Positions 2 through 39,201 of a DNA stretch of 64,000 nt are shown in pieces (the stretch's first letter is position 1; every line of letters begins with the position of its first letter). The stretch is taken from assembly GCA_903822075.1 (NCBI GenBank), contig CAIJNK010000021.1, positions 13,112-77,111 of the forward strand, read 5' to 3'. The position numbers were made by a program, and so were the translations under genes. The DNA comes from an uncultured bacterium (GTDB lineage: Bacteria; Patescibacteriota; Minisyncoccia; Phycocordibacterales; GWA1-40-21). Under the pieces are notes generated by a model that did not search any database, had not been told where the DNA came from, and saw only the letters and a list, made by a program, of their open reading frames with translations.

Positions 2-2887
2 TCAAACGACAAACTATATGGTTATGCCTGGGGGGAAAACATCGGCTGGATTTCTTTGACCTGTGAAAATGACCCTACAGCTAACTGCAGCGGAAACAGA
101 AATTATGGAGTCAGCCAGGATCCAAACAAAAAAGGAGCACTGACCGGCTACGCTTGGGGAGAAAATGTGGGCTGGATAGACTTTTCTCCAGATGGAGGCG
201 GAGTAAATATCAGTACTTCTACAAGTGGCACTAACACCTTGAGTGGCTTTGCTTGGGGAGAAAATATTGGTTGGATTTCTTTTTCTGGCACCGCACAGGA
301 CGCCAGCTCTTATGGTGTAAATACCACCTGGACATATCCTAGCTACACTCTTAGATACATCGCCGGCGCAAATGGTACGATTATCGGTTCCTCTACTCAG
401 GTGGTAAAAGTTGGCGATCACGGAACAACAGTTACCGCTTTGCCAAATTCTCATTATCACTTTATCAGTTGGAGTGATGGTGCCACCACAACCACCAGAA
501 CAGATCTGGCTGATTCTGGAAATGTTTCCCTTACGGCCAATTTTGCCATTAACACCTTCACTTTTAGATATACAGCCGGAGTCAACGGTACGATTACCGG
601 TTCCTCTACTCAGGTAGTAAATTTTGGAGCAAACGGAACAACGGTGACAGCCAACCCAAATTCAGATTACAATTTCACCAGTTGGAGTGATGGAATTTTG
701 ACAGCCAGCCGGAGTGACCTAAACGCCTCAAGCAGTCTTTCAGTCAGTGCTTCTTTTGTGGCAAATGGCAATACCGGTGGTACCGCAATACCAGATTGTC
801 TATATGATAATCCAATTTGGAGTGCTTGTAGTGTCACTGGTTCACAAAGTAGAACCCTCACAGCCACCAACCAAACCTGTACTGGTGATGTATCAAAAGT
901 TGAAACTCAAAATTGTACCCCAATTATTGAAATATCCATTAATCCATCGGCCACCACAACAATCTTCGTTGGTGATAAAGTTCAATTTACCGCCACGGTC
1001 ACCGGAACCACCACGAACCAAGTGACTTGGATTTTACCCGATGAAGCCTCTGGAAGTTTGGATAATAACGGCCTATATACAGCCCCACAAACTGGAGGGG
1101 TATTCCACATAATGGTTCGACCACAAGCAGATATTAGTAAGTCAGCTATCGCGCTCGTCGATGTCCGATTAAAACCAGTTTGTACTGATTATGTGTACTC
1201 TGATTGGTCAACTTGTATTAACAGTATACAAACACGAATAGCTTCTTCAGGCATCCCGGTATCCTGTTCTGGTGGGGTCGCTGAAGTCCTTTCAAAATCT
1301 TGTGTTATGGCCACTTCAACCGCTACCACTACCACCACCTGTACTGGGTATACTTATTCTGACTGGTCAACTTGCATAAATAGTACCCAAAGCCGGACTG
1401 TACTAACCAGTTTACCGGACAACAGCTGTGTCGGTGGAGAAAAACAAATCACAGAACAAGCTTGTATTGTTAAACCAGTGACTGTGGCGTCAGATATAAC
1501 CGTCTCCCCTTCAACCCTGAGCGCCAATGATTCCTTCACCGTTAGTTCAGACGGTTGGCAAGCAAATAGTAACGTAAAAGTTTCTTTGTATTCAAACCCC
1601 ATTGTTCTGGGTAATCTGACTGCCAATTCCAATGGTGAAGCAAATGGTTCGTTCGATATGCCAAAAAACCTTGAATCAGGCGAACACACCGTTCAATTAG
1701 AAGGTATCGGGCAAAACGGATTACCGAGAGTAATGACGACAAAAATTACTTTGACCGGGTCCGACACTGGACCAAACGGTCCGACAAATAGGAATGTAAC
1801 CAATAACCGTTCAGCTGGTGGAACCAGCGGCATACTGGCTATATTGAATATCGGTAATTTTGTCACCGATAACGTTGCTGTCCTTGGTACCACCACAGAA
1901 AGAATTGTCTTGGGTGCCCAAAAAGTTCTAGAGAGTAAGCCTGGAGATATTGCAGCTAAAACCATTACAACCGCCGGAGTGGTTGGTGGCGGAGTTGCTG
2001 CCTCATCGGTATTTATTCTAAACGGCACCACAGTACTAGATATACTTTTCTTCCCATTAAAACTTTGGGGATTACTACTATCGGCTCTTGGTTTAAGAAA
2101 GAGGAATCGCCCTTGGGGAACCGTCTACGATAGCGTAACCAAACAACCAATCGATCCAGCTTATGTAACTCTTAAAAAAATTGGATCGCAGGAGGAAACG
2201 ATGTCCATTACCGACCTCGATGGCCGCTATGGATTCTTGGTCTCTCCTGGAAAATATACCCTCACCGCCAACAAGACAAACTACACTTTCCCTTCGAAAA
2301 AACTACTCGGACGATCAGCTGACGCCTTGTATAACAACCTATATTTTGGTGAGGAATTAGAGGCTCCGGTGGCCGGCGCCGTAATCAGCAAAAATATTCC
2401 CCTTGACCCAGATAAATTTGACTGGAACGAATTCGTCAAAGGTCAAAAGAAAATGATGAAGTTCTATTCCCGCAGGGAAAAAATAATCAGGATCGCCACG
2501 AATTGGATCTTTAGAATCGGCTTTATTGTCTCGCTACTTTCCCTATTCCTGGTTACCGCCCCATACAACTTCATTATTTTTGGTCTGTATCTCCTACTCA
2601 CGATACTCCGCAAATTCGGTCTCAAACAAAAAGCCTTAGGTTATCTGACGGAAAAAGACGGCACCCCTCTCTCCTTTGCTGTTATTCGAATATTTTCTCC
2701 AGAATTAGATATTGAGATAACCAATAAAGTGGCAGATAAAATAGGCCGATACTATTGCCTCGTGCCCAAAGGTAAATATTTATTAAAAGTGGAAAAGAAG
2801 AACGATGATGAGAGTTATTCCGTCGTTTATACTTCCCCAATCATCGATGCCTCAAACGGAATAATAAATAGGAACTTTATAGTCTAA
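2..2887 (+). CDS. Large cell-surface protein, 5' end truncated by the window edge. Contains W-rich YG(Y/F)AWGENIGWI(S/D)F repeats, two Listeria-Bacteroides (Flg_new)-type ~45-aa repeats, Cys-rich ~40-aa modules and a C-terminal TM-rich region.
   Basis: ORF 56..2887 continues in frame to position 2 with no stop (SNDKLYGYAWGENIGWISL..). Four copies of the GxAWGENxGWI motif. Repeats TFTFRYTAGVNGTITGSSTQVV..SDYNFTSWSDG and YTLRYIAGANGTIIGSSTQVV..SHYHFISWSDG. Cys modules CxxYxYSDWSTC...C.GG x2. Hydrophobic C-terminal segments. Confidence 0.6.
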   Translation, partial: SNDKLYGYAWGENIGWISLTCENDPTANCSGNRNYGVSQDPNKKGALTGYAWGENVGWIDFSPDGGGVNISTSTSGTNTLSGFAWGENIGWISFSGTAQDASSYGVNTTWTYPSYTLRYIAGANGTIIGSSTQVVKVGDHGTTVTALPNSHYHFISWSDGATTTTRTDLADSGNVSLTANFAINTFTFRYTAGVNGTITGSSTQVVNFGANGTTVTANPNSDYNFTSWSDGILTASRSDLNASSSLSVSASFVANGNTGGTAIPDCLYDNPIWSACSVTGSQSRTLTATNQTCTGDVSKVETQNCTPIIEISINPSATTTIFVGDKVQFTATVTGTTTNQVTWILPDEASGSLDNNGLYTAPQTGGVFHIMVRPQADISKSAIALVDVRLKPVCTDYVYSDWSTCINSIQTRIASSGIPVSCSGGVAEVLSKSCVMATSTATTTTTCTGYTYSDWSTCINSTQSRTVLTSLPDNSCVGGEKQITEQACIVKPVTVASDITVSPSTLSANDSFTVSSDGWQANSNVKVSLYSNPIVLGNLTANSNGEANGSFDMPKNLESGEHTVQLEGIGQNGLPRVMTTKITLTGSDTGPNGPTNRNVTNNRSAGGTSGILAILNIGNFVTDNVAVLGTTTERIVLGAQKVLESKPGDIAAKTITTAGVVGGGVAASSVFILNGTTVLDILFFPLKLWGLLLSALGLRKRNRPWGTVYDSVTKQPIDPAYVTLKKIGSQEETMSITDLDGRYGFLVSPGKYTLTANKTNYTFPSKKLLGRSADALYNNLYFGEELEAPVAGAVISKNIPLDPDKFDWNEFVKGQKKMMKFYSRREKIIRIATNWIFRIGFIVSLLSLFLVTAPYNFIIFGLYLLLTILRKFGLKQKALGYLTEKDGTPLSFAVIRIFSPELDIEITNKVADKIGRYYCLVPKGKYLLKVEKKNDDESYSVVYTSPIIDASNGIINRNFIV

Positions 2888-3910: not shown

Positions 3911-4348
3911 TTATTTATAAGCAAATGGTAGTAATTCACTCTGCGAAGTTATCATTATTCTTGATTTATCACTATTCGAACAGATGACAATCAAATCATG
4001 ACCGGAAATATTTACCACCTCCTGCAATACTTGCCGGCAATTACCGCAAGGCGTTACCGGATTTACTATTCCCCCTTCTTTTTTCCCAATAATAGCTATA
4101 GCTACCAAATCCCTCTTACCCAGACTGTTAGCGGTAATAACAGCTGCCCGTTCGGAACAAATACTCGAAGGCGAGGATGAATTTACATAACTGGCGCCAG
4201 TAACTACTTCACCCGAAACCGCCCGAACGGCCGCCGCCACTTTAATCTGACTATTATACGGATTGTACGAATTCCCTAAGGCTTTTTCCGCTGCGTCCAA
4301 TAAATCTTTATGTTCCGGCGATAATTGTAAATATGATGTTTCAGTCAT
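3911..4348 (-). CDS. cdd: Cytidine deaminase (homotetrameric Cdd type).
   Basis: CSERAA ... PCGNCRQVLQE zinc-binding signature (C..E / PCxxC), 145 aa. Confidence 0.8.
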   Translation of the reverse strand: MTETSYLQLSPEHKDLLDAAEKALGNSYNPYNSQIKVAAAVRAVSGEVVTGASYVNSSSPSSICSERAAVITANSLGKRDLVAIAIIGKKEGGIVNPVTPCGNCRQVLQEVVNISGHDLIVICSNSDKSRIMITSQSELLPFAYK

Positions 4349-4452
4349 TCTATTTTATGATTAATAATACCAACTAGATATAGTGGCCATTATACTTGAA
4401 ATAAAGTGATTTTTAAAGTATCCTACATGAAGCTAATGACTTTAGCTATATT

Positions 4453-4521
4453 GCGGGTTCGTCTAAAGGTAGGACACATCCCTCTGAAGGATGGTATTGG
4501 GGTTCGAGTCCCTGACCCGCA
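4453..4521 (+). tRNA. tRNA-Gln (anticodon CTG), no encoded CCA.
   Basis: Acceptor GCGGGTT/GACCCGC. Anticodon stem CATCC/GGATG with loop CTCTGAA. T-arm GGGGTTCGAGTCCC. Confidence 0.75.
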
Positions 4522-4577
4522 GCTTGTAAGGTTTTAAATTCGATGTTATATTTTTATATATCAAATAATTTAATTAT

Positions 4578-5126
4578 ATGTCAGTAAAAATTACATACTT
4601 TGTACATGGTACGACAACAGATAATGAAAAACATCTCTCATCTGGATGGAAAGATGTTGAACTTTCTGATCTTGGAGTAAGCCAATCGATTGCTTTAAAG
4701 GATCAAACTAAAGATAAAAAATTTGATGTTGTATTTTGTTCTGATTTGAAACGCGCTCAAGATTCAGCAAAAATTACCTGGGATGGAGTTTACCATATTA
4801 TTTCTGATGCAAGACTTCGCGAATGTAATTATGGAGATTTAAACGGAGCGTCGTCAGATATTGTTGAACCAATGCAGGAAGAAGAATGTATCACTAAACC
4901 ATTTCCAAATGGTGAGAGTTATGAGGATGTAAAAATTCGTGTTGCAGATTTTCTTCAATTTCTAAAAAATAACTACAATGGTAAAAATGTTGCTATTGTC
5001 GCACACAAGGCTCCTCAAATAGCGATTGAAGTATTGATTAATGGTAAGACATGGGAACAGGCTCTAGCAGAAGACTGGAGAAAGACTAAGTCGTGGAAAC
5101 CAGGCTGGGGATATGTACTAAACTAG
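4578..5126 (+). CDS. Histidine phosphatase superfamily (phosphoglycerate-mutase-like) protein.
   Basis: N-terminal [13 protein letters not shown] (RHG-like catalytic motif) and overall branch-1 histidine phosphatase layout, 182 aa. Confidence 0.55.
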
Positions 5127-5163
5127 TTCCAATTTTATTCCACACGGCTTCTGGTCGAGGAGG

Positions 5164-5172
5164 TGTTATAAT
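5164..5172 (+). promoter_or_regulatory. Extended -10 box TGTTATAAT 6 nt upstream of the GIY-YIG ATG (leaderless-type promoter).
   Basis: TGnTATAAT match. Spacing places the TSS at the start codon. No SD. Confidence 0.45.
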
Positions 5173-5178
5173 ATTCCC

Positions 5179-5421
5179 ATGTATTTTACCTACATCCTTG
5201 AATGTGCCGATAAAACTTATTATGTCGGATGTACAAATGATCTTGAAAAAAGACTGCGGCAACATAATGGTTCTAAATGCGGCGCACATTATACCAAAAT
5301 ACGCCGACCAGTTATTTTGAAATACCAGGAAGAATTTAAGACATTAGCTGAGGCAAGAAGAAGAGAAGCTGAGATAAAGAGCTGGAAAAGAGAAAGAAAG
5401 ATTAACTTATTTGAAAAATAA
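5179..5421 (+). CDS. GIY-YIG nuclease-domain protein (UPF0213/YhbQ-like), 80 aa.
   Basis: [25 protein letters not shown] matches GIY-YIG core. Confidence 0.8.
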
Positions 5422-5491
5422 CCGAGGTAGATATTCCCTGCTCCGCAGCACTTGAATTTTGCAAAAAATATTGTAGTATCATACCGTGTTT

Positions 5492-6382
5492 ATGACCAAT
5501 AATAACACTCGCATAATATCTTTACTCGAAGAGGAACTTATTAAGTGCCACGCACCGGTGACAGGCTATTGCGTTACAACGGCGATTGTTACAGAAAAAG
5601 ATACATACATTGAGCATAATCATGAAGACCAAGACTCAGTTGTCTTTGAACATGCAGAGATAAGGGTATTGGAGAAAATTTTAAAGAAAGAACAAAGCCC
5701 AATAATTAAAAGGGTCTACATGTTGGGTGGCGGGGCAATCAAAAAAATAAAACACTATACGCCATGCTACGCTTGCACCCATAAAATGGCTCCATACATC
5801 ACTTCCAATACAACAGTTACACTTTTACCATTACTAGCCACCACTGCGCTGGTAACGTTTAACTACAATGAACTCCTCTCAAGTTATTCGGATGTGCCTT
5901 ACTCAAAATTTAGTAACACAAGCAAACAAGGAATACAAAAAGAGTTACGTGATAAAACTATTTTGAAGGGTAAAGATATCGATTTTATTGCCGACCTAAT
6001 ATTACTTGGTTTAAGAGAAAAGTTTGAGTTTTATTTGACCGGCAGTTCAACCGGGAGGGGCGGGGTCAGCAGATTACTTATGGAAAAAACTAAAACCAGT
6101 TATGGTGACATTGATATTATTGTCGTTGTTGCGGCCGATTATTACAAGATGGCAATAGAAAATATTGAAAAAGTCATTACACTACATTATGGCGCACACC
6201 TTAAAGAAGAAAGGCTAGTTCCCTTACGTCATAATAAATTAGGAGTTGTCCTTGGGAAGGCATATTACAGATGTAGTAATTCAAACGAAAAAATGTTAGA
6301 TTTTACTTTCAGTACGGATTTTAAAGGCTCATTATCCTACCATGCCTATGAGTTGAAAAATTGGTTCCATCAGTTGTCATAA
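5492..6382 (+). CDS. Fusion protein: N-terminal CDA-fold (cytidine/nucleotide deaminase-like, HAE + PCxxC) domain plus C-terminal Pol-beta-type nucleotidyltransferase domain.
   Basis: FEHAEIRVLE ... TPCYACTHKM (H/C/C zinc ligands). TGSSTGRGGVSRLL..SYGDIDIIVVV (GS...DxD NTase motif). The ORF-track start 5486 is a GTG; the first ATG is at 5492. Confidence 0.55.
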   Translation: MTNNNTRIISLLEEELIKCHAPVTGYCVTTAIVTEKDTYIEHNHEDQDSVVFEHAEIRVLEKILKKEQSPIIKRVYMLGGGAIKKIKHYTPCYACTHKMAPYITSNTTVTLLPLLATTALVTFNYNELLSSYSDVPYSKFSNTSKQGIQKELRDKTILKGKDIDFIADLILLGLREKFEFYLTGSSTGRGGVSRLLMEKTKTSYGDIDIIVVVAADYYKMAIENIEKVITLHYGAHLKEERLVPLRHNKLGVVLGKAYYRCSNSNEKMLDFTFSTDFKGSLSYHAYELKNWFHQLS

Positions 6383-6418
6383 CACTTTCGGCCACACGTT
6401 ACAAAGTGGGTAAATTAT

Positions 6419-7069
6419 ATGATTAAAAATTTAAGAGAAAAGCTTACTAGAATCGCCGAGGAGAGACAAGTAAAAGATGACCCCTCGCACGATTTTCAAC
6501 ATGTGAGACGAGTTTTGAATTTGGCAGTCAAAATAGGCAAGAGCGTAAATGCCGATGAAGATATCGTCATTCCGGCGGCCTTGTTCCATGATACGATTGT
6601 CTATAAAAAGAATTCCCCAGAAAGTAAGAATGAGGCAAACGAAAGCGCTGAAGTCGCCTCCAGAATACTGAGTAGTATAGAAGGATATCCTAAAGAAAAA
6701 ATTGCTAAGGTTGAAATTTGTATCAAACAATGTTCTTTTTCTAAAGGAATCAAGCCGGATTTACTGGAGTCAAAAGTCCTTCAGGACGCTGACCGATTAG
6801 AAGCGACCGGAGTTATCTCAATCATGAGAACTTTTTCCTCGTGTGGACACATGAATAGGCCATTATATGATCCACTGGACCCTTTCTGTGAAAAAGGGAC
6901 GAAAGATTTTAGATCCGGTATTGACCTCTTCTACCAGAGACTATTAGTTGTGGAGAAAACAATGCATACCGAACTGGCAAAGAAAATGGCCGGAGCCAGA
7001 ACAGACTTTTTAGAGAAGTTTCTAAAACAATTAAAAAAAGAGCTTACGGAATCAGATGTTTTAAAATAA
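6419..7069 (+). CDS. HD-domain metal-dependent phosphohydrolase.
   Basis: SHDFQHVRRV ... ALFHD ... LQDADRLEATG (H..H / HD / D motif set), 216 aa. Confidence 0.75.
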   Translation: MIKNLREKLTRIAEERQVKDDPSHDFQHVRRVLNLAVKIGKSVNADEDIVIPAALFHDTIVYKKNSPESKNEANESAEVASRILSSIEGYPKEKIAKVEICIKQCSFSKGIKPDLLESKVLQDADRLEATGVISIMRTFSSCGHMNRPLYDPLDPFCEKGTKDFRSGIDLFYQRLLVVEKTMHTELAKKMAGARTDFLEKFLKQLKKELTESDVLK

Positions 7070-7070
7070 A

Positions 7071-7098
7071 ACCCCTGGCACATTACTGCACCAGGGGT
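7071..7098. terminator. Bidirectional terminator hairpin ACCCCTGG-loop-CCAGGGGT between convergent HD and dcd genes.
   Basis: 8-bp perfect stem directly after the HD stop codon. Confidence 0.5.
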
Positions 7099-7119
7099 AA
7101 CTAATCCGGAAAGAACTTC

Positions 7120-7764
7120 TCAGAGTTTGTCTCGGGAAAACTTCGGCAACATCATAAATGGTGACCAAGCCGCCATCATCTGCTCGGTATTATCAGTCGT
7201 CTGATATTGTCCACCGGCGGTGGAATAAGACTCGTCGAGCGGGTCAACCTGATAGAAGGCAATCTGGGCCACCCGCATCCCGACCACCAGAACCACTGAT
7301 GTATCTTTGAGATGATTACTCATCTCCATGGTCCAGCGGTTACAGAAACCTAGGTCTCCCCAACCGGCGCACTTACAAACAGTGATACCAATCCGACCCA
7401 TGGAACTTCTAGCCCTCATCTCCGTGGTCACGCAGTTCCGACCGCCAATAAACTCATCCGTGTGGGCAAGAATGGTTTCCCCCGGCCCGAGAACGATGAG
7501 CTGGTCTGTAGACAAAATATTCCGCAAGCTACCATTTTGTTTCATCCACTCATGAGCCCTAATTGCCTGTTGGGGTTCTCCCCAGTACTTCTTTACGTCA
7601 TCAGAGTCGAAGGGATTAAAAATCCTCCTAGAGGACACTCCACGAAACGGCTGTTCTTGGAAAAAGTTCGGCCCGAGTCTCACATCGTAGCTTGTGGTTT
7701 GAAGATTGCTATTGTTAAACGGAAAAATAAAGATATTCCCGTTTTCCAAATGATGATTAATCAT
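7120..7764 (-). CDS. dcd: dCTP deaminase family (dUTPase-fold) protein.
   Basis: MINHHLENGNIFI..YDVRLG and ARSSMGRIGITV..AGWGDLGF resemble Dcd GRSSLARLGL..DPGW. The ORF-track start 7866 is a TTG 34 codons upstream; the ATG at 7764 matches the Dcd N-terminus. Confidence 0.65.
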   Translation of the reverse strand: MINHHLENGNIFIFPFNNSNLQTTSYDVRLGPNFFQEQPFRGVSSRRIFNPFDSDDVKKYWGEPQQAIRAHEWMKQNGSLRNILSTDQLIVLGPGETILAHTDEFIGGRNCVTTEMRARSSMGRIGITVCKCAGWGDLGFCNRWTMEMSNHLKDTSVVLVVGMRVAQIAFYQVDPLDESYSTAGGQYQTTDNTEQMMAAWSPFMMLPKFSRDKL

Positions 7765-7908
7765 TCCCCGACTCAACAACGAACGTCCTGGCGCCTTCTG
7801 TCTTCTTTTCACAATGTATTTCCTTTCCTGTTTAAGCCTTCTAAAGCAAGGATACTTTAAAAGCAAACTTTTTTCAAGCCAACAACAAAACTTAGCTAGT
7901 TTATATCC

Positions 7909-10408: not shown

Positions 10409-10412
10409 CCGG

Positions 10413-10485
10413 AGCCAAAGGTGAGGATTGAACTCACGACCCCCGCTTTACGAAAGCGGTGCTCTACCAACTGAGCTACTTTGGC
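10413..10485 (-). tRNA. tRNA-Thr (anticodon CGT).
   Basis: GCCAAAG..CTTTGGC acceptor. D-arm GCTCAGTTGGTAGAGC. Anticodon loop TTCGTAA. T-arm GTGAGTTCAATCCTCAC. Confidence 0.8.
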
Positions 10486-10629: not shown

Positions 10630-10705
10630 TGGAGCCAAGACCGGGGTTTGAACCCGGGACCTCGTCATTACCAATGACGTGCTCTACCAGCTGAGCTATC
10701 TTGGC
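10630..10705 (-). tRNA. tRNA-Thr (anticodon GGT), CCA encoded.
   Basis: GCCAAGA..TCTTGGC acceptor. Anticodon stem-loop CGTCA-TTGGTAA-TGACG. T-arm CCCGGGTTCAAACCCCGG. 3' TCCA. Confidence 0.8.
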
Positions 10706-11417: not shown

Positions 11418-11904
11418 AATCCAGTGACTCCCGAATATTAACATGCCCATGCAAAAATCCCAAACACAAATGTGCTGGGATTTTCGTCGGATTCCAAAGG
11501 TCAGACCTAAGGAGAAACCGGCAGAGTGTTCACTAGAACCTGACCCTTATCAAGCAGTGAACTTGCCAAGTGAAAGAACTGGAGGAGGATATGCTCAAAT
11601 GCCTGAAAGATGTCTGGCATAAGAGACCTAAGGATCAAAATGGTAAGCCCCAGTCCCAAAGCTCCTAAAATTCTCATAATTTTAAAAGAAGGGGGCTTTT
11701 AAGGCGTCCGACAACGCCTTGGGCAACCAATGACCCAAATCCCCTCCCCATAGAAATTTCAATCACTTAAAATCTCCGAGGGGAGGGTCTCCTGACTCAG
11801 TTTTTCAAATAGCTTTTTTGCTCTCAAAACCTACCCAAAATATAGCATATATTTGACCATATTACAACTAGACACATAGCCATTATTACAGTCTAATTTC
11901 TTTG

Positions 11905-11976
11905 CGCGGGCGATGGGTGCTGACCCCACGGCCTCTCCCGTGACAGGGGAGTGCTCTACCGTTGAGCTACGCCCGC
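11905..11976 (-). tRNA. tRNA-Asp (anticodon GTC).
   Basis: Acceptor GCGGGCG/CGCCCGC. Anticodon stem-loop CTCCC-CTGTCAC-GGGAG. Atypical T-loop GTCAGCA. Confidence 0.7.
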
Positions 11977-12048
11977 GTTTTTTCAAATCTCTCAAAAAAG
12001 AGATTGCTACTATTATACATAAAATAACCCTTTAGACAAATCTATTTG

Positions 12049-12119
12049 TGCCGATGAATGGAATTGAACCATTTTTTGAGGCTTATGAGTCCCCCGTTCT
12101 ACCATTGAACTACATCGGC
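12049..12119 (-). tRNA. tRNA with CAT anticodon (Met, fMet or Ile-lysidine type).
   Basis: Acceptor GCCGATG/CATCGGC. D-arm GTTCAATGGTAGAAC. Anticodon loop CTCATAA. T-arm ATGGTTCAATTCCAT. Confidence 0.7.
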
Positions 12120-12196
12120 AAATATTAATCGTCAAAACAGCTTGCTTAATATAGCATTTTAAGCCCAAAAATCAATAGAAACACGACCTTAATTGT

Positions 12197-12265
12197 TGCG
12201 GGGGCCCGATTTGCACGGGCGTCTCAAGGTTATGAGCCTCGCGAATTACTGTTACTCTACCCCGC
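12197..12265 (-). tRNA. Second CAT-anticodon tRNA-like gene (short D-arm).
   Basis: GCGGGGT..CCCCGC acceptor. Anticodon stem-loop CGAGG-CTCATAA-CCTTG. T-arm GCCCG-TGCAAAT-CGGGC. Some helices are imperfect. Confidence 0.45.
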
Positions 12266-12354
12266 TAACGACTATAATACATCATTATGGTAAAAACGCA
12301 ACTTCCCTTTCCCCGCCTTTTCTAAGGAGGGGTGGCGTTCTGACGCCGGGGTGG

Positions 12355-16791: not shown

Positions 16792-17775
16792 CTATCTAAC
16801 ACATTTTGTTGTATAACTGTTTCCTTTAACTGCCCATTCGGTTATTTGATTTGTAAAATATCTAACATGGACATCGTAACCACAGTCATGACAATATGAC
16901 CAATCTCCGCTTTCCGATGTCCAAAAGCTTGTATCATGAAATCCCCACGGATTTCCCCAGGCATCCCACGTTAGCCCTCCAGCGATAGTTTCGTTTACCG
17001 TCGGGGTCCTCCAACCAATACTTGCGCAATAACTCTGTGCGTTATCCCAAGTTTGAATTGTTTCTTGGGCTTGAGTCTGCCAAACTATAGAACAACTTTG
17101 GGAATCCGTCATGGTTGCGTTTCCGGTACATGGCTGATTAGTAGCCGTCAGAGTTCTAGATTTTGTACCGGCAGGCATACAAATGCCCCAAGCAGGGTTA
17201 TCATAAACACAAGCTGGTCCAACGGGTGCCACATTAACACTTCCCTTTATCACCTGTTCGATCTTTCTTTCCACTCGGTCTCCACTATCTGAATCGTGAC
17301 CGACGGATGAAATAGTGGTCTTCAAATATTGGCTCTGCAAACCACGGTTAAATATTTCCTTGGTAAAGGTGACCTCAAAGTTCTGATCGCCAGCAGTAAT
17401 AAACATTTTGGGTATATCAACTTGGACCTTAGTAGAGACAAGTGGGGTAGCGCCGTCAAAGTTACCGGTCACCTGTATTGATCCAGAATTTCCACAATTA
17501 ATGGTCCCGGGGGTACTTACCGCCTTAAAAAAGGAAGATGGTATTTGTCCTCTTTTTTCATCCCAATACTTTATGCATTCCAAACCGCTATCAGCCGCGT
17601 AAAAAGCTTGGACCGAAAGCTGATTTGCCTTGGAGATAGCCATTTCTTTTAAGGTAATACTAAAAATAGAAAGCCCGATGGTCAATAGAAGGCTGGAAAC
17701 CAGAACGGAAAAAAGCAGAGCAAAACCTTGTTTGCGGAAGGAAACAAAAAACTTTTTTTGAAAATCTTTAATCAT
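16792..17775 (-). CDS. Pilus-associated secreted protein with a pseudopilin-like N-terminus and Cys-rich C-terminal modules (candidate minor pilin/tip adhesin).
   Basis: KQGFALLFSVLVSSLLL prepilin-like hydrophobic segment lacking Glu5. Shares a CxYDNPxWxxC..SRTLTATNQxCTG module with the giant surface protein. Start taken at MIKDF (17775) adjacent to the upstream pilin stop. Confidence 0.5.
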   Translation of the reverse strand: MIKDFQKKFFVSFRKQGFALLFSVLVSSLLLTIGLSIFSITLKEMAISKANQLSVQAFYAADSGLECIKYWDEKRGQIPSSFFKAVSTPGTINCGNSGSIQVTGNFDGATPLVSTKVQVDIPKMFITAGDQNFEVTFTKEIFNRGLQSQYLKTTISSVGHDSDSGDRVERKIEQVIKGSVNVAPVGPACVYDNPAWGICMPAGTKSRTLTATNQPCTGNATMTDSQSCSIVWQTQAQETIQTWDNAQSYCASIGWRTPTVNETIAGGLTWDAWGNPWGFHDTSFWTSESGDWSYCHDCGYDVHVRYFTNQITEWAVKGNSYTTKCVR

Positions 17776-17776
17776 T

Positions 17777-18346
17777 TTAAATTGGGTCCACCCGATAGGT
17801 GTCATAGATCAGATCCTTAACCGTTATTACATTTCCAGTCCCCCCCCAACTTACTTGGACGGTGATTAATGCTTCGTCCGCATTTGTCCCGTAGGGATTT
17901 TTTAAGATATTAACCTTCCGGACAAAATCAGTTGGTGTCCCGCCGGCGGCATAATCATATAAATAACTGCTGTTATCGACTGATAATGGAGTGGTTACGC
18001 CGGCATATATCGTGCCTCCATTTGGTGGATTAATTGTATCCACTCGGCACCAATTTGAATTTAAGCACTGATCGAGGCCATCAAGCCAACCGACACCATC
18101 ATCTGTTCTGGCGGCTATTACATTCACGTCTTTTTTATTCTTAATAAATTCTATGGCATCCTGTGCTAAATAAGAGGCGACCATCTGGCTCTTGGTATAA
18201 ACCGCCGAGGTAAGGCCTTTCTGGGCAATAGTAATTGGCGTGACAACGGCCACCATCAAAATAGATATGGCTACCAAAGCCTCGAGCAGGGTAAAGCCTT
18301 TTATAGATAATGACTGAGTATTTTTATTTCGTCTTAATTTAAGCAT
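17777..18346 (-). CDS. Type IV minor pilin-like protein.
   Basis: Class III signal IKGFTLLEALVAISIL (G-F-T-L-L-E), 189 aa. Confidence 0.75.
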   Translation of the reverse strand: MLKLRRNKNTQSLSIKGFTLLEALVAISILMVAVVTPITIAQKGLTSAVYTKSQMVASYLAQDAIEFIKNKKDVNVIAARTDDGVGWLDGLDQCLNSNWCRVDTINPPNGGTIYAGVTTPLSVDNSSYLYDYAAGGTPTDFVRKVNILKNPYGTNADEALITVQVSWGGTGNVITVKDLIYDTYRVDPI

Positions 18347-18350
18347 GATA

Positions 18351-18965
18351 TTATTGACGATATTCTCTTTGAGAAATACTGGTCTGCAGATTAAAATCAG
18401 TTTTAATTTTTTCCTTTACCCCCGCTTCACCTTGAATTGAGATAACCATCCGAGGCTGTTGCGCCAAACTGGTCACCCCAATGATATAAAACTTTGAGCT
18501 GGGGGCGATTACTACCTCGGCCGAAGTTATCGGATTAAAGGCTGAAGGATTTGAATATGAACAGGTAACCCCACCTACCTCCAGGCATAATTTTATCTTA
18601 TTCCCCTCGAATTTATAATAAGCATATTTTTTCAAACCAGTAGGATCTGAGACATCAACCGGATCAGCTCTCTGTGACCGGTATTTGATAATATTTCCAC
18701 CACCCGGGCAATCGGTACTCGTAGGTTCACCATTGTTTCCACAATTATAATCCGATCCCAATCTCATATCTTTGGAAATACCCTCAATGGCGAAACTGAG
18801 ATTATTAATAGCGGTCTTGATTGATCGGGCCTTACTATTGGCATCAATAACGTTCATCAGGGCCCCCATGGCGGCCGTCATCACAATAGTAAAAACTGCA
18901 GTTGCCACTAAGAGCTCAATTATCGTAAAACCTGATTTAGTCTTATTTTTGAAAAAATACTTCAT
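18351..18965 (-). CDS. Type IV pilin-like protein.
   Basis: KSGFTIIELLVATAVF prepilin N-terminus, 204 aa. Confidence 0.75.
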   Translation of the reverse strand: MKYFFKNKTKSGFTIIELLVATAVFTIVMTAAMGALMNVIDANSKARSIKTAINNLSFAIEGISKDMRLGSDYNCGNNGEPTSTDCPGGGNIIKYRSQRADPVDVSDPTGLKKYAYYKFEGNKIKLCLEVGGVTCSYSNPSAFNPITSAEVVIAPSSKFYIIGVTSLAQQPRMVISIQGEAGVKEKIKTDFNLQTSISQREYRQ

Positions 18966-18968
18966 GGT

Positions 18969-19649
18969 TTAATTCAAAATCTCGATCAGACCGTTAGACC
19001 TGACTCGCACCTTCCTGATATTACCATCGGGGTTACCCAAGATTATGGTTGCGATTCCGACGGAAGACACAGTAGTACTGTCATTAAACCTGATCTGGGC
19101 GTCCGGGTTTGGCCGCTTGAAAACAACATCTAAACTGCTCTTGCTGGTATCTGGACTAGTTGAACAAGCTTTCTGCGTAACGTCCAACTCTTCCTCGCAA
19201 ATCTGCTTGATGTAATTTCCCCTTTTAATACTATACCTGCTCACGCACCCTTTCTCAATCTGACAAATTGACGGATCAATGGTAGCTAGGGTGTTCTTAC
19301 CATAACGGCCGTCGTTACCTTCAGTACTGGAAGAATAAGTCAGGTCGGCAAAAAGAATGAACGACTTTGGAGAACTTGTGGCAAAGTGAACTCCATAAGG
19401 CACAAAGTTTCCGGTATCGCCGGAGGCCCCGGTATTAAACTCCTTGATGTTTATACCGTACATCTGAGCTTGCCTTACTGTCAAAGCTGTATCATATGCC
19501 AAATCGGTAAGTAGGATAGTACTGTTGAACTTTGACTGATTAAAAAGAACCACCCCAGTTAAGATGGTAAAAATCGAGAGGGTAACCAGAAGCTCAACCA
19601 AGGTAAAACCTATACTATTATTTTTGAAATTTCTTTTTACCTGAAGCAT
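18969..19649 (-). CDS. Type IV pilin-like protein.
   Basis: SIGFTLVELLVTLSIF prepilin N-terminus, 226 aa. Confidence 0.75.
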   Translation of the reverse strand: MLQVKRNFKNNSIGFTLVELLVTLSIFTILTGVVLFNQSKFNSTILLTDLAYDTALTVRQAQMYGINIKEFNTGASGDTGNFVPYGVHFATSSPKSFILFADLTYSSSTEGNDGRYGKNTLATIDPSICQIEKGCVSRYSIKRGNYIKQICEEELDVTQKACSTSPDTSKSSLDVVFKRPNPDAQIRFNDSTTVSSVGIATIILGNPDGNIRKVRVRSNGLIEILN

Positions 19650-19657
19650 ACGTAAAT

Positions 19658-19666
19658 ATTATAGCA
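19658..19666 (-). promoter_or_regulatory. Extended -10 box TGCTATAAT 8 nt upstream of the pilin ATG at 19649.
   Basis: Minus-strand reading TACATGCTATAATATTTACGTATG. Confidence 0.45.
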
Positions 19667-19677
19667 TGTATACCATT

Positions 19678-20511
19678 TTATTGTATCAAAAAACCAAGAT
19701 TTAAAACATCGATGTTAAAGAAAAAAACCAATAAGAAACCGAGAATAAGAAAGGGGGCAAAAGGCACTTCTGTCTGACCGTTTATTTTTAAACCGTGCCA
19801 ACTAAATTTGGATAAAACCATCAAAATAACGCCGTAGATTGCTCCGGTCCAAAAGGCTAAAATAACGGCCGACAAACCCATAATCGGTCCTAGGAACCAG
19901 CCGATACCCAACACCAGCTTAGGGTCACCTAGACCCATCCATCGGCCGCGAGAGACGAGCCAGATAAGAAAAAGAGGAAAAGCCAGCATTGGGCCGGCTG
20001 CCAGATACCAAATCAGATGGGTTTTGATTTCAGTGGGAACACCCGCCATTAAAAAGAAGTCCGCCATAATCTTGAATAGACCCAGAAGTCCAAGAGTAAT
20101 AACTAGACCGTCGGGGATGATTTTATGTTTGATATCATAAACCGCAATACAAACTAGAGTTGCCATAGCCACTAAATAGATGAGAATATACCAGGAATCG
20201 AAATACAAACCAATTAAACCCGAATATTTTAGAAAAACACCTACAAACAGAAGTCCGGTTATACTTTCAACTACCGGGTATTGCCAGGATATCTTACTCT
20301 GACAACCACGGCATTTACCCCGCTGCAAAATAAAACTCAAGACCGGAAATAGCTCCAGTGGCCCGAGCTTTTTGCCGCAAGAAAAACAGAACGACCGTCC
20401 TTTTGTGGCGGAGACGCCGGTGTTATAGCGTAAAACAAGAACATTCAGAAAACTGCCAATAATGGTGCCAAAAATAAAAACCAAGATGTAAAAAATTATT
20501 TCGGTAGTCAT
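19678..20511 (-). CDS. pilD: Prepilin peptidase (A24 family) PilD.
   Basis: N-terminal CFSCGKKL...CRGCQ zinc motif, polytopic membrane domain, 277 aa, inside the pilin cluster. Confidence 0.8.
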   Translation of the reverse strand: MTTEIIFYILVFIFGTIIGSFLNVLVLRYNTGVSATKGRSFCFSCGKKLGPLELFPVLSFILQRGKCRGCQSKISWQYPVVESITGLLFVGVFLKYSGLIGLYFDSWYILIYLVAMATLVCIAVYDIKHKIIPDGLVITLGLLGLFKIMADFFLMAGVPTEIKTHLIWYLAAGPMLAFPLFLIWLVSRGRWMGLGDPKLVLGIGWFLGPIMGLSAVILAFWTGAIYGVILMVLSKFSWHGLKINGQTEVPFAPFLILGFLLVFFFNIDVLNLGFLIQ

Positions 20512-20517
20512 GTTTAT

Positions 20518-21000
20518 CTATGGGTGAACGTTAAAGTTTTTTGTACCAGCTACAAGACCGGGGCCGGAATAACCAACATCGCAATAACTATAGCCATTAG
20601 AAATACTGCCTGGGGCTGAAGAGAAAGTATCGGCCGCATCAATTTGGGCGCTAGTTAATTCCAAAGTCGTCCCTAAGTGATAATAGACGCATTTAGGACT
20701 GCCAGCTCTTTTTAGAGGGATGTAAGTATACTGCGTGCCGTCTGGAGAAACTAAAGAATCGGCCGTTGTGTACTTAGGAACGAGTTCCTGGAGGGTCAAG
20801 GGGTACCCTTGAGTTGAAGTGGCTTGGCCACTGTAAAGTGACAAGCCAAGCTGGATATTGGTAATATCCGAAATTCTTTCCGTGTCGCGATTTTTCTTTC
20901 GAATATCATTCATCGAGGGTAAAATAAGGGTCGTTAAAATGGCAATGATAGCAATCACTATCAACACCTCCGCGATGGTAAAGCCAGACTTGATTTTCAT
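20518..21000 (-). CDS. Type IV pilin-like protein.
   Basis: KSGFTIAEVLIVIAII prepilin N-terminus, 160 aa. Confidence 0.75.
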   Translation of the reverse strand: MKIKSGFTIAEVLIVIAIIAILTTLILPSMNDIRKKNRDTERISDITNIQLGLSLYSGQATSTQGYPLTLQELVPKYTTADSLVSPDGTQYTYIPLKRAGSPKCVYYHLGTTLELTSAQIDAADTFSSAPGSISNGYSYCDVGYSGPGLVAGTKNFNVHP

Positions 21001-21006
21001 GGGTTC

Positions 21007-21015
21007 ATTATAGCA
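21007..21015 (-). promoter_or_regulatory. Extended -10 box TGCTATAAT 6 nt upstream of the pilin ATG at 21000.
   Basis: Minus-strand reading AATTGCTATAATGAACCCATG. Confidence 0.45.
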
Positions 21016-21039
21016 ATTAAACTTTAAAAAGAGAAATAG

Positions 21040-21483
21040 CTACTGACAAGAACCGTCGTTTCCGGCAATGCTGGAAGTAGAATTACCCTCAAAATCGATG
21101 CACCAACCCCCTCCTCCCTGGAGAGTAGCCGAAACAGCATAAGTACTAGTTCCGACCATACAGGTCGTGGTAGCGTTAAAACGTCCATTGAGCGCCGCCA
21201 ACTGGTTGATTATGTAGGTGTCAGACATCAGGCCTTCCGTGTTGGCGCAATTATCAACAATGGGGTCCCCGTCCACAAAGGAGGGGTAATAACCGTTGTT
21301 TTCATCACGATAAATCTGCGCCTGCGCTTGAATATTCTTTAACTCCCCCTTTATGGCCGCATCATTGCCTTTTATTCTGGCGGTATTCATACTAGCTAAG
21401 ACCACGGATGATAAAATACCAATGATGGCAATCACCACCAACAACTCGACCAATGTAAACCCGCTCCTTAACTTTGTAGACAT
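21040..21483 (-). CDS. Type IV pilin (major-pilin-like).
   Basis: RSGFTLVELLVVIAIIGILSSVVLASMNTARIKGNDAAIK, 147 aa. Confidence 0.8.
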   Translation of the reverse strand: MSTKLRSGFTLVELLVVIAIIGILSSVVLASMNTARIKGNDAAIKGELKNIQAQAQIYRDENNGYYPSFVDGDPIVDNCANTEGLMSDTYIINQLAALNGRFNATTTCMVGTSTYAVSATLQGGGGWCIDFEGNSTSSIAGNDGSCQ

Positions 21484-21516
21484 ATCTTGTTTTTACAAGT
21501 TAACATATATAAATAT

Positions 21517-21525
21517 ATTATAGCA
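21517..21525 (-). promoter_or_regulatory. ATGTGCTATAAT promoter box with ~33-nt leader upstream of pilin 21040..21483.
   Basis: Exact copy of the ATGTGCTATAAT motif. Confidence 0.45.
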
Positions 21526-21622
21526 CATTCATATTATGACACCAAAAAATTTAGCAACAAAATAGCCTGCTCAAGGCAGACTACTTTGCTTAAACCAAAA
21601 TTGGCTTAACTAAACCTCGACT

Positions 21623-22033
21623 TTAAATACAACCGGATGAGCCAATGTTTGATACGCTACCTGTTGTTGTCGAAACACCATTACCGTCAGTACAGAAGTA
21701 GTTGGCGCTGTTTGCAACAAGCTTTGAAGCAGCTGCCCAACCAGAAGAAGAAGCAGAAGTGGAAATGGATGTTCCACCGGAACTTATAATACCGTTCATT
21801 ATTCTAACAACTGTTGGATCAGCAAACATACCAACGTAGGTTGGGGTTGACTGGTTATCATAATACAAAGCAGCTTGAGCTTTGAGGCTTCCGAGCTGTG
21901 ACTTGATAGCTGCATCCTGACCCTTGGCTCTGGCGGTGTTCAATGATGCCAAGACAACTGACGAAAGAATACCGATAATTGCGATAACGACGAGAAGTTC
22001 TATAAGTGTAAAACCTCTATTTGATTTTGTCAT
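21623..22033 (-). CDS. Type IV pilin (PilA-like major pilin).
   Basis: NRGFTLIELLVVIAIIGILSSVVLASLNTARAKGQDAAIK, 136 aa. Confidence 0.8.
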   Translation of the reverse strand: MTKSNRGFTLIELLVVIAIIGILSSVVLASLNTARAKGQDAAIKSQLGSLKAQAALYYDNQSTPTYVGMFADPTVVRIMNGIISSGGTSISTSASSSGWAAASKLVANSANYFCTDGNGVSTTTGSVSNIGSSGCI

Positions 22034-22214
22034 AATTAATTTTTAAACTTTTTACTCTCCTAATTTTTATTTTATAAAAATTTAGATGAGTGAATTAAAA
22101 CCTTATAAATTCCAAATTATTTTTGACTCATTTTATCACTTTACGTAAGAGTGACAAGAAGAGATCGACCAAAAACTTTTTGGGAAGCTAAAATAAAATG
22201 ATTAGCCTACGTTT

Positions 22215-22223
22215 ATTATAGCA
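22215..22223 (-). promoter_or_regulatory. ATGTGCTATAAT promoter box ~185 nt upstream of pilin 21623..22033 (long 5' UTR).
   Basis: Exact motif. Weak TTGTTG -35 at 16-nt spacing. Confidence 0.4.
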
Positions 22224-22377
22224 CATAACGAATTGTCAACAACACAGGGGTGTGGAAAACTATCATCCTTCAGGGTTCAGGTTATTTTCCGTTACTGTTT
22301 ATGTCAAAATTTACTAATTTCGCAGTATAGTTCACGTCTAAATCTGCTGATTTCGACGTAAATTTTACGCTTAAAAT

Positions 22378-23583: not shown

Positions 23584-23588
23584 GTTTT

Positions 23589-24650: not shown

Positions 24651-24654
24651 ATTT

Positions 24655-25062
24655 TTATTGCTTAACCTCAGTCTTTTTTTGCAAATTATAAATCCTCTCT
24701 ACTTCTTCCACTACCTCAGAAGGAATAGTGGTGGCCTTGATTATATAACCGTTGATACCAAAGCTCTTAGCTTTTTCAATATCCGCCAATTGACCTTGGT
24801 TGGTCAGCATAATAATCATTGCATTCGGAACAAGGTTGTTCTTTTTAAGATTATCCAATATTTCAAAACCGTCCATTCCCGGCATAACAATATCCAGTAA
24901 GACTATATCCGGGGCATAACCTTCTTTGATCTTGCCTAAAGCTTCTTCACCAGATGAAGCAGAATTTACTTCAAAACCATTCTTGCTGAATTTTATAGAA
25001 TACATGTTCAACAGAAACTTATCGTCATCAATAATCAAAACTTTTGGTAATTTATTTTCCAT
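24655..25062 (-). CDS. Response-regulator receiver domain (PilH/CheY-like) inside the pilus operon.
   Basis: KVLIIDDD..DIVLLDIVMPGMDGFEIL..K, 135 aa, no output domain. Confidence 0.75.
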   Translation of the reverse strand: MENKLPKVLIIDDDKFLLNMYSIKFSKNGFEVNSASSGEEALGKIKEGYAPDIVLLDIVMPGMDGFEILDNLKKNNLVPNAMIIMLTNQGQLADIEKAKSFGINGYIIKATTIPSEVVEEVERIYNLQKKTEVKQ

Positions 25063-25101
25063 GGAAATATTATATCATAATAAAAAACTAATAAATACAA
25101 C

Positions 25102-26841: not shown

Positions 26842-26858
26842 ATGAAATTTCTCAAAAA

Positions 26859-27212: not shown

Positions 27213-27224
27213 GATTTTAATAAT

Positions 27225-27788: not shown

Positions 27789-27799
27789 ATTTTTAATGA

Positions 27800-28450: not shown

Positions 28451-28501
28451 ATTCTTGCACTATTATAATACTAATCAAAAATAAAAGCTATCAACAACAA
28501 G

Positions 28502-39195: not shown

Positions 39196-39201
39196 CCAAT
39201 T

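Follow-up and report, generated by a model that had tools for sequence, protein, structure and literature searches.

A rare deaminase–nucleotidyltransferase fusion protein of Patescibacteria with a possible role in pyrimidine deoxynucleotide metabolism

Introduction

What is the function of a protein in which a cytidine deaminase (CDA)-like domain is fused to a nucleotidyltransferase (NTase)-like domain? The question is raised by a locus in an uncultured bacterium, GWA1-40-21 (Patescibacteriota; assembly GCA_903822075.1, contig CAIJNK010000021.1). The window analysed here is a stretch of 64,000 nt, positions 13,112–77,111 of the forward strand of this contig, and about 4 kb of it holds six genes that a preliminary description had grouped as a nucleotide-editing or salvage cluster. 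One of the six encodes the fusion. The roles proposed for it were tRNA tailing or editing, modification of a nucleotide antibiotic, and participation in a nucleotide-depletion defence module.

Bacteria of the candidate phyla radiation (CPR, or Patescibacteria) are without most of nucleotide biosynthesis and rely on salvage, and the ways in which they balance their dNTPs and synthesise thymidylate are only partly understood. We report that the fusion defines a rare family within this group, with a deaminase domain of the CDD/CDA clade and a C-terminal domain of predicted Pol-beta NTase fold, and we weigh the functions that it might have.

Results

The fusion defines a rare family of constant architecture

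The window protein has two domains, as described preliminarily. Its length is 298 amino acids from a GTG start or 296 from the ATG used in public gene calls, rather than the 297 given before. We found 17 close homologs, all of 290–300 amino acids, which cover the full length at 42–67% identity; an identical 296-residue protein (P0001) occurs on four public contigs. An exhaustive HMMER search of 1.84 billion protein clusters with the C-terminal domain profile alone (E ≤ 1e-3) recovered 72 cluster representatives among the 1.84e9 proteins. Nearly all are 280–340 amino acids long and carry the domain at the extreme C-terminus. The deaminase family PF00383 was matched by 35 of 56 aligned members, and the complete His/Glu/Cys/Cys deaminase set is kept in 40 of 52 full-length members; it has disappeared from the remaining 12, which retain the G-S and D-x-D motifs of the C-terminal domain. 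A few short matches (70–230 amino acids) may stem from genes cut by the end of a contig, or be genuine stand-alone domains. As judged from these sequences, the C-terminal domain is practically always preceded by a CDA-like domain, and the fusion is ancient and obligate.

An origin of the fusion by sequencing error or from a split gene was rejected, because all full-length relatives agree with the fusion in length and in two-domain layout. For the same reason the fusion is not an assembly error. The case in which the two halves are separate genes in close relatives, which had been named beforehand as one that would undo the claim of a genuine fusion, was not seen, and that claim is borne out. 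There is no second copy within the window.

All named sources of family members are metagenome-assembled genomes (MAGs) of Patescibacteria (Candidatus Paceibacterota, Saccharibacteria and Saccharimonadales), and the distribution within the CPR is very rare and patchy. No member was found on viral contigs, and in BFVD deaminases and NTases occur only as separate proteins. Median isoelectric points are acidic to neutral, 6.3 for members with an intact deaminase set and 5.1 for those without it, which fits small-molecule rather than polynucleotide substrates.

Public annotation calls the proteins "cytidine deaminase" or "hypothetical protein", and no family of Pfam or NCBIfam exists for the C-terminal domain. 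No description of a CDA–NTase fusion was found in full-text literature searches or in the reference classification of the deaminase fold (PMC3239186), in agreement with the novelty claimed preliminarily. As far as these searches reach, the domain combination, its obligate fusion, the division into active and inactive subfamilies and the partnership described below are undescribed, though built from known folds.

One member, P0062 (L033:153–1376, 407 amino acids; loci are designated here by L numbers), has the C-terminal half of an EEP domain (endonuclease/exonuclease/phosphatase, PF03372) ahead of the CDA domain. It may be a real three-domain variant or the product of a mis-called start.

The N-terminal domain belongs to the CDD/CDA clade

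The preliminary description recognised a CDA fold with an H-A-E ... P-C-x-x-C zinc site in the N-terminal half. This stands: the motifs are invariant in the 17 homologs (residue by residue in Table 1), and their alignment, which might have failed in profile searches, holds. A profile of the 17 homologs matched solved tetrameric cytidine deaminases in the PDB at E 2.7e-7, and 16 of the 17 match PF00383 individually (best 8.4e-8). The window protein alone gave 19.8 bits against PF00383, below the gathering threshold of 25. Models of the APOBEC type also stayed below threshold and aligned with the PCxxC helix only.

N45 and E47 of the fusion match N42 and E44 of Bacillus subtilis CDA, which contact the ribose 3′-OH. 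At the end of the domain E129 is at least 90% conserved and Y134 invariant among the 17 homologs. Y134 is at least 90% conserved family-wide, including the members that have lost the deaminase residues; in CDA structures the pyrimidine ring is capped by the equivalent aromatic side chain.

The synapomorphies of the CDD/CDA clade are a C[H]AE motif in helix 2, PCxxC(R) in helix 3 and a glutamate ending strand 5 (Iyer et al. 2011, Table 1, PMC3239186). All three were found in the fusion. The arginine that trails PCxxC is absent, with Thr98 in its place, and this fits the use of histidine rather than cysteine as the first zinc ligand. In an AlphaFold2 model made from the 17-sequence alignment (pLDDT 91.2, pTM 0.83), strands 105–113 and 123–126 are predicted to be joined by a loop with no helix 4 between them, as in deaminases of the C-terminal-hairpin type. 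Foldseek comparison of the model matched true CDAs at E 6e-8 (TMt ~0.77) and blasticidin-S deaminases at E 3e-4, so that the domain is not closer to the latter than to nucleoside CDAs.

The fusion shares with tetrameric cytidine deaminases the [CH]AE and PCxxC motifs, the strand-5 glutamate, N-x-E and the C-terminal aromatic residue in ELLxxY/F. It differs from them in the histidine ligand, in the missing arginine and in the ~120–160-residue C-terminal NTase part. It also scores 17.7 bits against the Cdd equivalog TIGR01354 (EC 3.5.4.5), whose cut-off is 113.65, and at 296–298 residues is not a single-domain protein of ~130. By its sequence features, therefore, the N-terminal domain is a member of the CDD/CDA clade, yet not a Cdd ortholog.

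The C-terminal domain is predicted to have a Pol-beta NTase fold

The C-terminal domain follows a two-helix linker in which T158, L160 and D164 are at least 90% conserved over 56 sequences. In the model it has the alpha/beta core fold of the Pol-beta superfamily, and the motifs that define the superfamily (h-G-[GS], [DE]-h-[DE]-h and a later third carboxylate) are predicted to lie in the canonical triad layout. G186 and S187 are at least 90% conserved family-wide; among the 17 homologs S187, R191 and G192 are invariant and G186 is at least 90% conserved. D208 and D210, the predicted metal-binding residues, are at least 90% conserved over 56 sequences, the deaminase-dead ones included. The candidate third carboxylate, position 272, is D or E in most of the broad family alignment, and N292 with aromatic residues at 293 and 294 is kept in most of it.

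Of the motif reported preliminarily (G-S, x13, D-I-D) both parts are present, and the spacing has to be corrected to G186-S187-x20-D208-I-D210. This distance of 20 residues compares with the usual 9–13. No NTase family of Pfam or NCBIfam matched the window protein, and none of Pfam matched any of the 17 and 56 aligned members. Searches of PDB sequences with the whole protein, with a full-length family profile and with a profile of the domain gave no match for the domain, and hhalign against a verified Pol-beta NTase protein (NTP_transf_2) gave a probability of 0.2%. Because no sequence method recognises the domain, its assignment as an NTase is structural and predicted. The Pol-beta-type C-terminal half claimed before thus holds for fold and motifs in the predicted structure, and fails for membership of a sequence family; on the model, the domain is of the Pol-beta NTase fold class and outside every described sequence family.

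No sequence relationship was detectable between the domain and minimal or antibiotic NTases (LinB, 3jyy; ANT(2″), 4xje; LnuA, 4wh5; MNT). Structural similarity of the model to antibiotic NTases covers the common core only, ~100–105 residues, and the features that mark membership of the resistance families were not found. The fusion differs from these enzymes in the 20-residue spacing, the extra S-T-G-R-G-G loop and its own N-W-F-H motif; it also has no C-terminal helical acceptor domain, and a CDA domain at the N-terminus instead. Class II CCA- and A-adding enzymes (3h37, 4wby) have neck, body and tail regions, match PF01743 and are ~400 residues long, whereas the C-terminal part of the fusion has ~120–160 residues, gives no PF01743 match and is followed by nothing. 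The fusion family also has a rare, non-essential distribution, unlike that of CCA-adding enzymes.

A deaminase-dead subfamily has its own partner gene

In the 12 members that have lost the zinc-binding and catalytic residues, P93 and Y134 are kept, E47 is present in nine, and the NTase motif set is intact. The NTase motifs are thus the constant element in these sequences, and the CDA pocket seemingly persists for ligand binding where catalysis has been lost.

In four loci (L018–L021) a homologous gene for a 236-residue protein with a winged helix-turn-helix (wHTH) and a NUDIX domain lies directly upstream of the deaminase-dead member, and its stop codon abuts or overlaps the member's start. 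The Nudix box is degenerate, with G-x5-E retained and the REUxEE glutamates gone. This partner looks like the nucleotide-sensing regulators of the NrtR type, which likewise combine a winged helix with a NUDIX domain of degenerate box and lie directly upstream of nucleotide-metabolism genes. The order of domains in NrtR is NUDIX then HTH; in the partner it is HTH then NUDIX, and the window has no such gene.

A HAD/UMPH-1 pyrimidine 5′-nucleotidase gene lies 18 bp downstream of the dead member in L021. L018 (2384–7397 of contig CAWDVI010000001.1) carries two paralogs separated by 2.4 kb, one active and one dead, the latter of 353 amino acids. By analogy with known deaminases the two might form an active/inactive hetero-oligomer. 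Catalytic and non-catalytic CDA-fold modules also coexist in the dimeric CDA of Escherichia coli and plants and in ADAT2/ADAT3, but the dead copy found here is a separate protein whose NTase domain is intact and which has a wHTH-NUDIX gene of its own as partner.

Other genes were seen around the dead members. The dead paralog of L018 is followed by an MNT-type NTase gene (PF18765/PF01909) and, by eye, by type I restriction-modification (R-M) specificity and methylase genes. Homologs of ParB-CE (PF24392) lie divergently upstream of the NUDIX/dead pair at L019:928–1509 and L020:5929–6555, and in L019 a P-loop NMP-kinase-like gene stands next to the ParB-CE gene.

Genes of pyrimidine deoxynucleotide metabolism recur beside family members

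Gene context was drawn from about 20 loci, many of them short, of which ~16 are distinct; the genomes are incomplete MAGs. In L027 a dUTPase gene (E 3.5e-25) precedes the family member by 8 bp and an SHMT/glyA gene (E 9e-140) follows it. A DCD/dUTPase gene lies 18 bp upstream of the L036 member, a protein only 23% identical to that of the window, and in the window a dcd-like gene is found 738 bp downstream of the fusion. In L018 thyX, a gene for an NT5C deoxypyrimidine nucleotidase and the active member make up an operon on the minus strand in which stops and starts overlap. With ~2 dut/dcd genes in a genome of ~800 genes, a given locus would have one no more than two genes away in ~1% of cases; by this rough estimate, their presence near members in 3 of ~16 distinct loci is far above expectation. 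NUDIX genes occur near members in L010, L012, L013 and L001, Ham1 and guanylate kinase genes in L017, NrdR in L012, and phosphoribosyltransferase genes within a few kb in other loci. The link to nucleotide metabolism drawn in the preliminary description is upheld by the recurrence of dut/dcd, thyX and nucleotidase genes.

The gene neighbourhood of the fusion in the window recurs in the same species only. A homolog of its HD phosphohydrolase gene was found in one other locus, L010, 2.3 kb from the family member and on the other strand. In other relatives the gene downstream encodes a peroxiredoxin, a GIY-YIG protein, LysE, a short-chain dehydrogenase or others. Neighbourhood comparison and all-against-all clustering of neighbours gave adjacency of fusion and HD gene in the same species only, and the idea that the two form a unit, put forward before, was rejected. 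The 4-kb neighbourhood is a loose set of nucleotide-handling genes, neither a conserved operon nor a system.

The locus and the rest of the window

All six open reading frames described preliminarily were found at their positions, and their family assignments were upheld (Table 1), including that of the convergent dCTP-deaminase-family gene, whose superfamily is confirmed by PF22769. The histidine phosphatase, GIY-YIG, fusion and HD genes form a co-directional plus-strand block with gaps of 52, 70 and 36 bp, closed by a terminator-like hairpin. A His_Phos_1 gene is likewise found upstream of the family homolog in L003. Homologs of the GIY-YIG gene adjoin the family member in L004 and lie 5.4 kb from it in L001. 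The HD protein matched YedJ (3gw7) at E 1.3e-29 and 5dqv at E 1.9e-17 in the PDB; it belongs to the YedJ/YpgQ family and is no dGTPase, so that the dGTPase link suggested for it falls away. The protein of the separate cdd gene ends in ELLPFAYK. In public assemblies the dcd-like gene is called at 7120–7812, with 230 amino acids. Motif searches of the window gave no tdk, thyX, dut or class II cca gene, a result that is uninformative, since the window is only 64 kb of the genome.

Table 1. Positions of features in the window and of partner genes in other loci
Feature	Position	Strand	Remarks
cdd, ordinary separate cytidine deaminase	3911–4348	-	NF004064 82.6 bits (equivalog cut-off 74); PF00383 E 7.6e-10
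tRNA-Gln(CTG)	4452–4523	+	ARAGORN; no encoded CCA; between cdd and plus-strand block
Histidine phosphatase (branch 1)	4578–5126	+	First gene of co-directional block; PF00300 E 6.6e-30
Stand-alone GIY-YIG protein, 80 aa	5179–5421	+	PF01541 E 3.6e-17
CDA–NTase fusion gene	5486–6382	+	298 aa from GTG 5486; 296 aa from ATG 5492; stop TAA 6380–6382
N-terminal cytidine-deaminase domain, residues 1–135	5486–5890	+	CDD/CDA clade, C-terminal-hairpin type
N45-H-E47	5618–5626	+	Aligned to N42-x-E44 of B. subtilis CDA; invariant in 17 homologs
H56-A57-E58, zinc ligand and catalytic glutamate	5651–5659	+	Helix 2; H56 and E58 invariant in 17 homologs
P93-C94-Y-A-C97, two cysteine zinc ligands	5762–5776	+	Helix 3; invariant in 17 homologs
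E129-L-L-S-S-Y134, glutamate ending strand 5 and aromatic	5870–5887	+	Matches ELLPxxF motif of tetrameric CDAs
Two-helix linker, residues 136–180	5891–6025	+	Predicted helices 147–157 and 163–178
C-terminal minimal NTase domain, predicted Pol-beta fold, residues 181–298	6026–6379	+	
G186-S187-S-T-G-R191-G-G193, G-S motif and Gly/Arg-rich loop	6041–6064	+	Predicted strand 181–185, then helix 193–202
Y206-G-D208-I-D210, two predicted metal-binding aspartates	6101–6115	+	On strand 2 (208–214)
D272, candidate third carboxylate of NTase triad	6299–6301	+	Strand 269–276; invariant in 17 homologs
N292-W-F-H295, family-specific C-terminal motif	6359–6370	+	Invariant in 17 homologs
HD phosphohydrolase, YedJ/YpgQ family	6419–7069	+	PF01966 E 1.8e-10; PRK10119 148 bits (below cut-off of 286)
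GC-rich hairpin, 12-bp stem, terminator-like	7071–7098		Between convergent HD and dcd-like genes
dCTP-deaminase/dUTPase-superfamily (dcd-like) gene	7120–7866	-	PF22769 E 6.4e-31; TIGR02274 87.6 bits (just under cut-off of 92.8)
wHTH-NUDIX genes	L018:5083–5793; L019:1642–2352; L020:6701–7408; L021:231–941		Upstream of deaminase-dead members

Several further observations were made in the window. As described before, its tRNA genes lack an encoded 3′ CCA, in eight cases of eight (4452–4523, 10411–10485, 10630–10705, 11904–11976, 12048–12119, 12195–12266, 53945–54032 and 59477–59550), and this makes the organism dependent on a CCA-adding enzyme. The last of these genes (minus strand) is a tRNA-Ile gene whose anticodon is TAT (UAU); in most bacteria AUA is decoded by a lysidine-modified CAU tRNA instead. 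A low-GC region at 38491–41589 (minus strand, GC ~0.37) encodes a weakly HNH-like protein, a 670-residue protein with a Schlafen-group-3 helicase and an S24 LexA-like peptidase, and a 123-residue MazG-like pyrophosphohydrolase, and looks more like a mobile or defence island than the region of the fusion does. At 53079–53858 (plus strand) lies a gene for a protein like the archaeal type of IMP cyclohydrolase (PF07826, E 2.4e-36), in a CPR genome that presumably lacks the greater part of purine biosynthesis. At 61694–62629 (plus strand) a smpB-like open reading frame, assigned by eye, directly precedes a tmRNA gene whose predicted tag is unusually long, with 27 residues (ANSIVSRVKSVVSPYFAANSFAFAYVA). 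A block resembling type IV pilus and competence genes by eye (16792–29626, minus strand) holds GFTL(I/V)ELLV prepilins, a prepilin peptidase-like gene and PilB/PilT/PilC/PilM-like genes; DNA taken up by such a system possibly feeds nucleotide salvage. At 56–2887 (plus strand) lies a gene for a putative surface protein of 943 amino acids, repeat-rich and Thr/Ser-rich, with a C-terminal membrane region.

Discussion

We propose that the fusion is an accessory enzyme of pyrimidine deoxynucleotide metabolism that acts around dUMP and dTMP, a reading to which we would give a probability of about 0.45. In this proposal NTase-type chemistry at the α-phosphate of a nucleotide would be the constant activity of the family, and the CDA-like pocket would hold the pyrimidine nucleoside moiety of the ligand. 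In the active subfamily, which includes the window gene, the pocket would also deaminate cytosine to uracil. With E47 on the ribose 3′-OH, only the 5′ side of the nucleoside in the pocket would be left for the NTase site to act on, and the simplest ligand would be a cytosine (deoxy)nucleoside triphosphate spanning both domains. Deamination together with loss of pyrophosphate could convert dCTP to dUMP; by another route dCTP might be cleaved to dCMP, and a neighbouring nucleotidase and the CDA domain would then lead from dCMP through dC to dU. The outcome would be an accessory entry to dUMP and thymidylate, or a trimming of the pyrimidine dNTP pool, in organisms that salvage nucleotides. The NTase fold would serve as a (d)NTP pyrophosphohydrolase or transferase made base-specific by the CDA domain as its pocket, and in the deaminase-dead subfamily only the NTase step of this machine would be left, under a Nudix-like nucleotide sensor. 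The specific mechanism in which one CDA–NTase polypeptide takes dCTP to dUMP, which would be an unrecognised, non-homologous route to thymidylate in the CPR, seems to us doubtful.

Since an ordinary cdd gene is already present in the genome, another substrate is probable for the fused CDA domain. The membership of the HD neighbour in the YedJ/YpgQ family fits a model centred on pyrimidine dNTPs, YpgQ being a (d)NTP pyrophosphohydrolase. The net reaction that we envisage (dCTP to dUMP, PPi and NH3) would resemble, by analogy, that of the bifunctional dCTP deaminase–dUTPase (DCD-DUT) or of the pair Dcd and Dut, and like theirs would feed thymidylate synthase. This likeness is functional and hypothetical: in place of the beta-barrel trimer of the dUTPase fold, the fusion would use CDA and Pol-beta NTase folds. 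A second parallel, for the route through dCMP, is the deoxycytidine pathway of E. coli (YfbR, Cdd, Tdk), in which, according to Weiss 2007 as cited in two papers (PMC8475336, PMC4491880), the HD-domain protein YfbR is a dCMP phosphohydrolase that feeds deoxycytidine to Cdd. There too a deoxynucleotidase or phosphohydrolase co-occurs with a CDA upstream of thymidylate synthase, as in the thyX–NT5C–member operon of L018 and with the HD and phosphatase genes of the window. The E. coli genes, however, are separate and unlinked, the pathway ends with thymidine kinase, no NTase fold takes part, and the HD protein of the window is YedJ/YpgQ-like, unlike YfbR.

A number of points weigh against a role in dUMP and dTMP supply. 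The NTase assignment comes from predicted structure and motif positions, and sequence profiles give it no support. We know of no established physiological activity in which a Pol-beta NTase uses water as the acceptor (NTP to NMP and PPi). Tetrameric CDAs normally take nucleosides and not 5′-phosphorylated nucleotides, so that a nucleotide substrate would require a remodelled pocket. The proposed reaction would be partly redundant in a genome that has cdd and a dcd-like gene, as it would be in L027, which has dut. Most loci (for example L004, L005, L024, L028, L031, L033 and L034) have no nucleotide gene directly adjoining, and some have neighbours of a conflict type: type I R-M and MNT genes in L018, an AAA_15/DUF4435 ATPase in L020 and a transposase in L005. 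The rare and patchy distribution would fit an accessory or a conflict role as well, and the window protein is itself basic, with an isoelectric point of 8.4.

Two alternatives keep a small-molecule substrate. In one, the CDA-like domain would bind (and, where active, deaminate) a cytosine nucleoside such as one of the blasticidin, amicetin or gougerotin type, and the NTase would adenylylate a hydroxyl as LinB, Lnu and ANT enzymes do. The CDA domain could stand in for the acceptor-binding second domain that usually accompanies an NTase and is missing from this minimal one; antibiotic NTases are among the fold matches, together with the similarity to blasticidin-S deaminase, and GNAT, APH-like, NUDIX and AAA_33 kinase genes lie 3–5 kb downstream in L001. 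Some CPR bacteria live attached to Actinobacteria, the makers of such antibiotics, and a patchy distribution would suit a resistance gene. But no antibiotic NTase family is matched in sequence, the structural likeness is confined to the common core given above, the N-terminal domain is nearer to true cytidine deaminases than to blasticidin-S deaminase, and it is dut/dcd, thyX, glyA and pyrimidine nucleotidase genes that recur nearby, not resistance genes. We regard detoxification of an antibiotic or nucleoside analogue as unlikely, and as weaker than the metabolic role. Deaminases fused to nucleotide-binding domains are known anti-phage effectors that deplete dCTP, and the fusion might similarly deplete or corrupt the dCTP/CTP pool, or make a nucleotide signal, with the wHTH-NUDIX protein as sensor for the dead subfamily. 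Rarity, the MNT-type NTase and type I R-M genes directly beside the dead paralog of L018, the ATPase gene ~4 kb away in L020, the transposase and a 903-residue AAA_21/SMC_N protein in L005, and the ParB-CE gene shared by the pairs of L019 and L020 would all agree with such a defence effector. Its place in the conflict with phages is nevertheless quite unlikely. The models of known nucleotide-depletion systems in PADLOC do not describe it; the fusion, cdd, phosphatase and dcd-like proteins have no PADLOC match, the GIY-YIG and HD proteins match at chance level (E ~0.008), and hence none of the six proteins meaningfully matches. The absence of members from viral contigs, the housekeeping genes near the fusion in the window and in most loci (FtsEX, prfB, PriA, def/fmt, IF3/L20, FtsZ), the metabolic character of the tight thyX/NT5C and dut/glyA operons and the lack of a conserved toxin–antitoxin-like partner in the active subfamily point the same way, and the defence module of the preliminary description is not borne out.

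The remaining alternatives involve nucleic acids. An enzyme of RNA or tRNA 3′ ends, in which the NTase would add nucleotides (CCA repair, A-addition or tailing) and the CDA-like domain would recognise or edit a terminal cytidine, would agree with the missing CCA of the tRNA genes, with CCA-enzyme fold matches, with the basic character of the window protein and with an RNase II/R-like gene upstream in L024 (RNB motifs by eye). We consider it very unlikely: 72 representatives are far too few for an essential function in all CPR bacteria whose tRNA genes do not encode CCA, most members are acidic, neither neck, body and tail nor PF01743 nor a GGxVRD motif was seen, N45 and E47 would hold the ribose 3′-OH away from the nucleotidyl donor, and the pocket is of the type found in free-nucleoside deaminases and not in the polynucleotide editors TadA and APOBEC. 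The tailing role suggested earlier thus finds little place in a family that is rare, mostly acidic to neutral and devoid of the CCA-enzyme neck and body. A DNA-level enzyme would be a Pol-beta-like polymerase or terminal transferase with cytosine or uracil recognition. Together with GIY-YIG or EEP nucleases it would process uracil or AP sites or bring about targeted mutagenesis. The similarity to Pol X, the partial EEP domain of P0062, the weak APOBEC-family matches and the GIY-YIG genes adjoining in the window and L004 would speak for it; that adjacency is limited to 2 of ~16 loci, however, and the APOBEC matches to the PCxxC helix, below threshold. No fingers, thumb, 8-kDa or HhH DNA-binding domains accompany the NTase core, most members have an acidic isoelectric point, and the deaminase is of the hairpin/CDA type with free-nucleoside contacts, all of which makes action on DNA highly improbable.

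The finding would be modest if the fusion proved to be a common cytidine deaminase that carries a regulatory appendage. If both sites cooperate on one ligand, the deaminase pocket would be the base-recognition module of an NTase, which would be a new enzyme design. Compact CDA-fold enzymes with new substrate ranges also hold practical interest for work on nucleoside analogues and for base-editing tools. Comparison of the active with the dead subfamily offers a natural experiment for separating the two activities. If the proposed role in pyrimidine deoxynucleotide metabolism is true, the fusion may be a non-homologous substitute for Dcd/Dut, or for a portion of the deoxycytidine pathway, in bacteria of the CPR.

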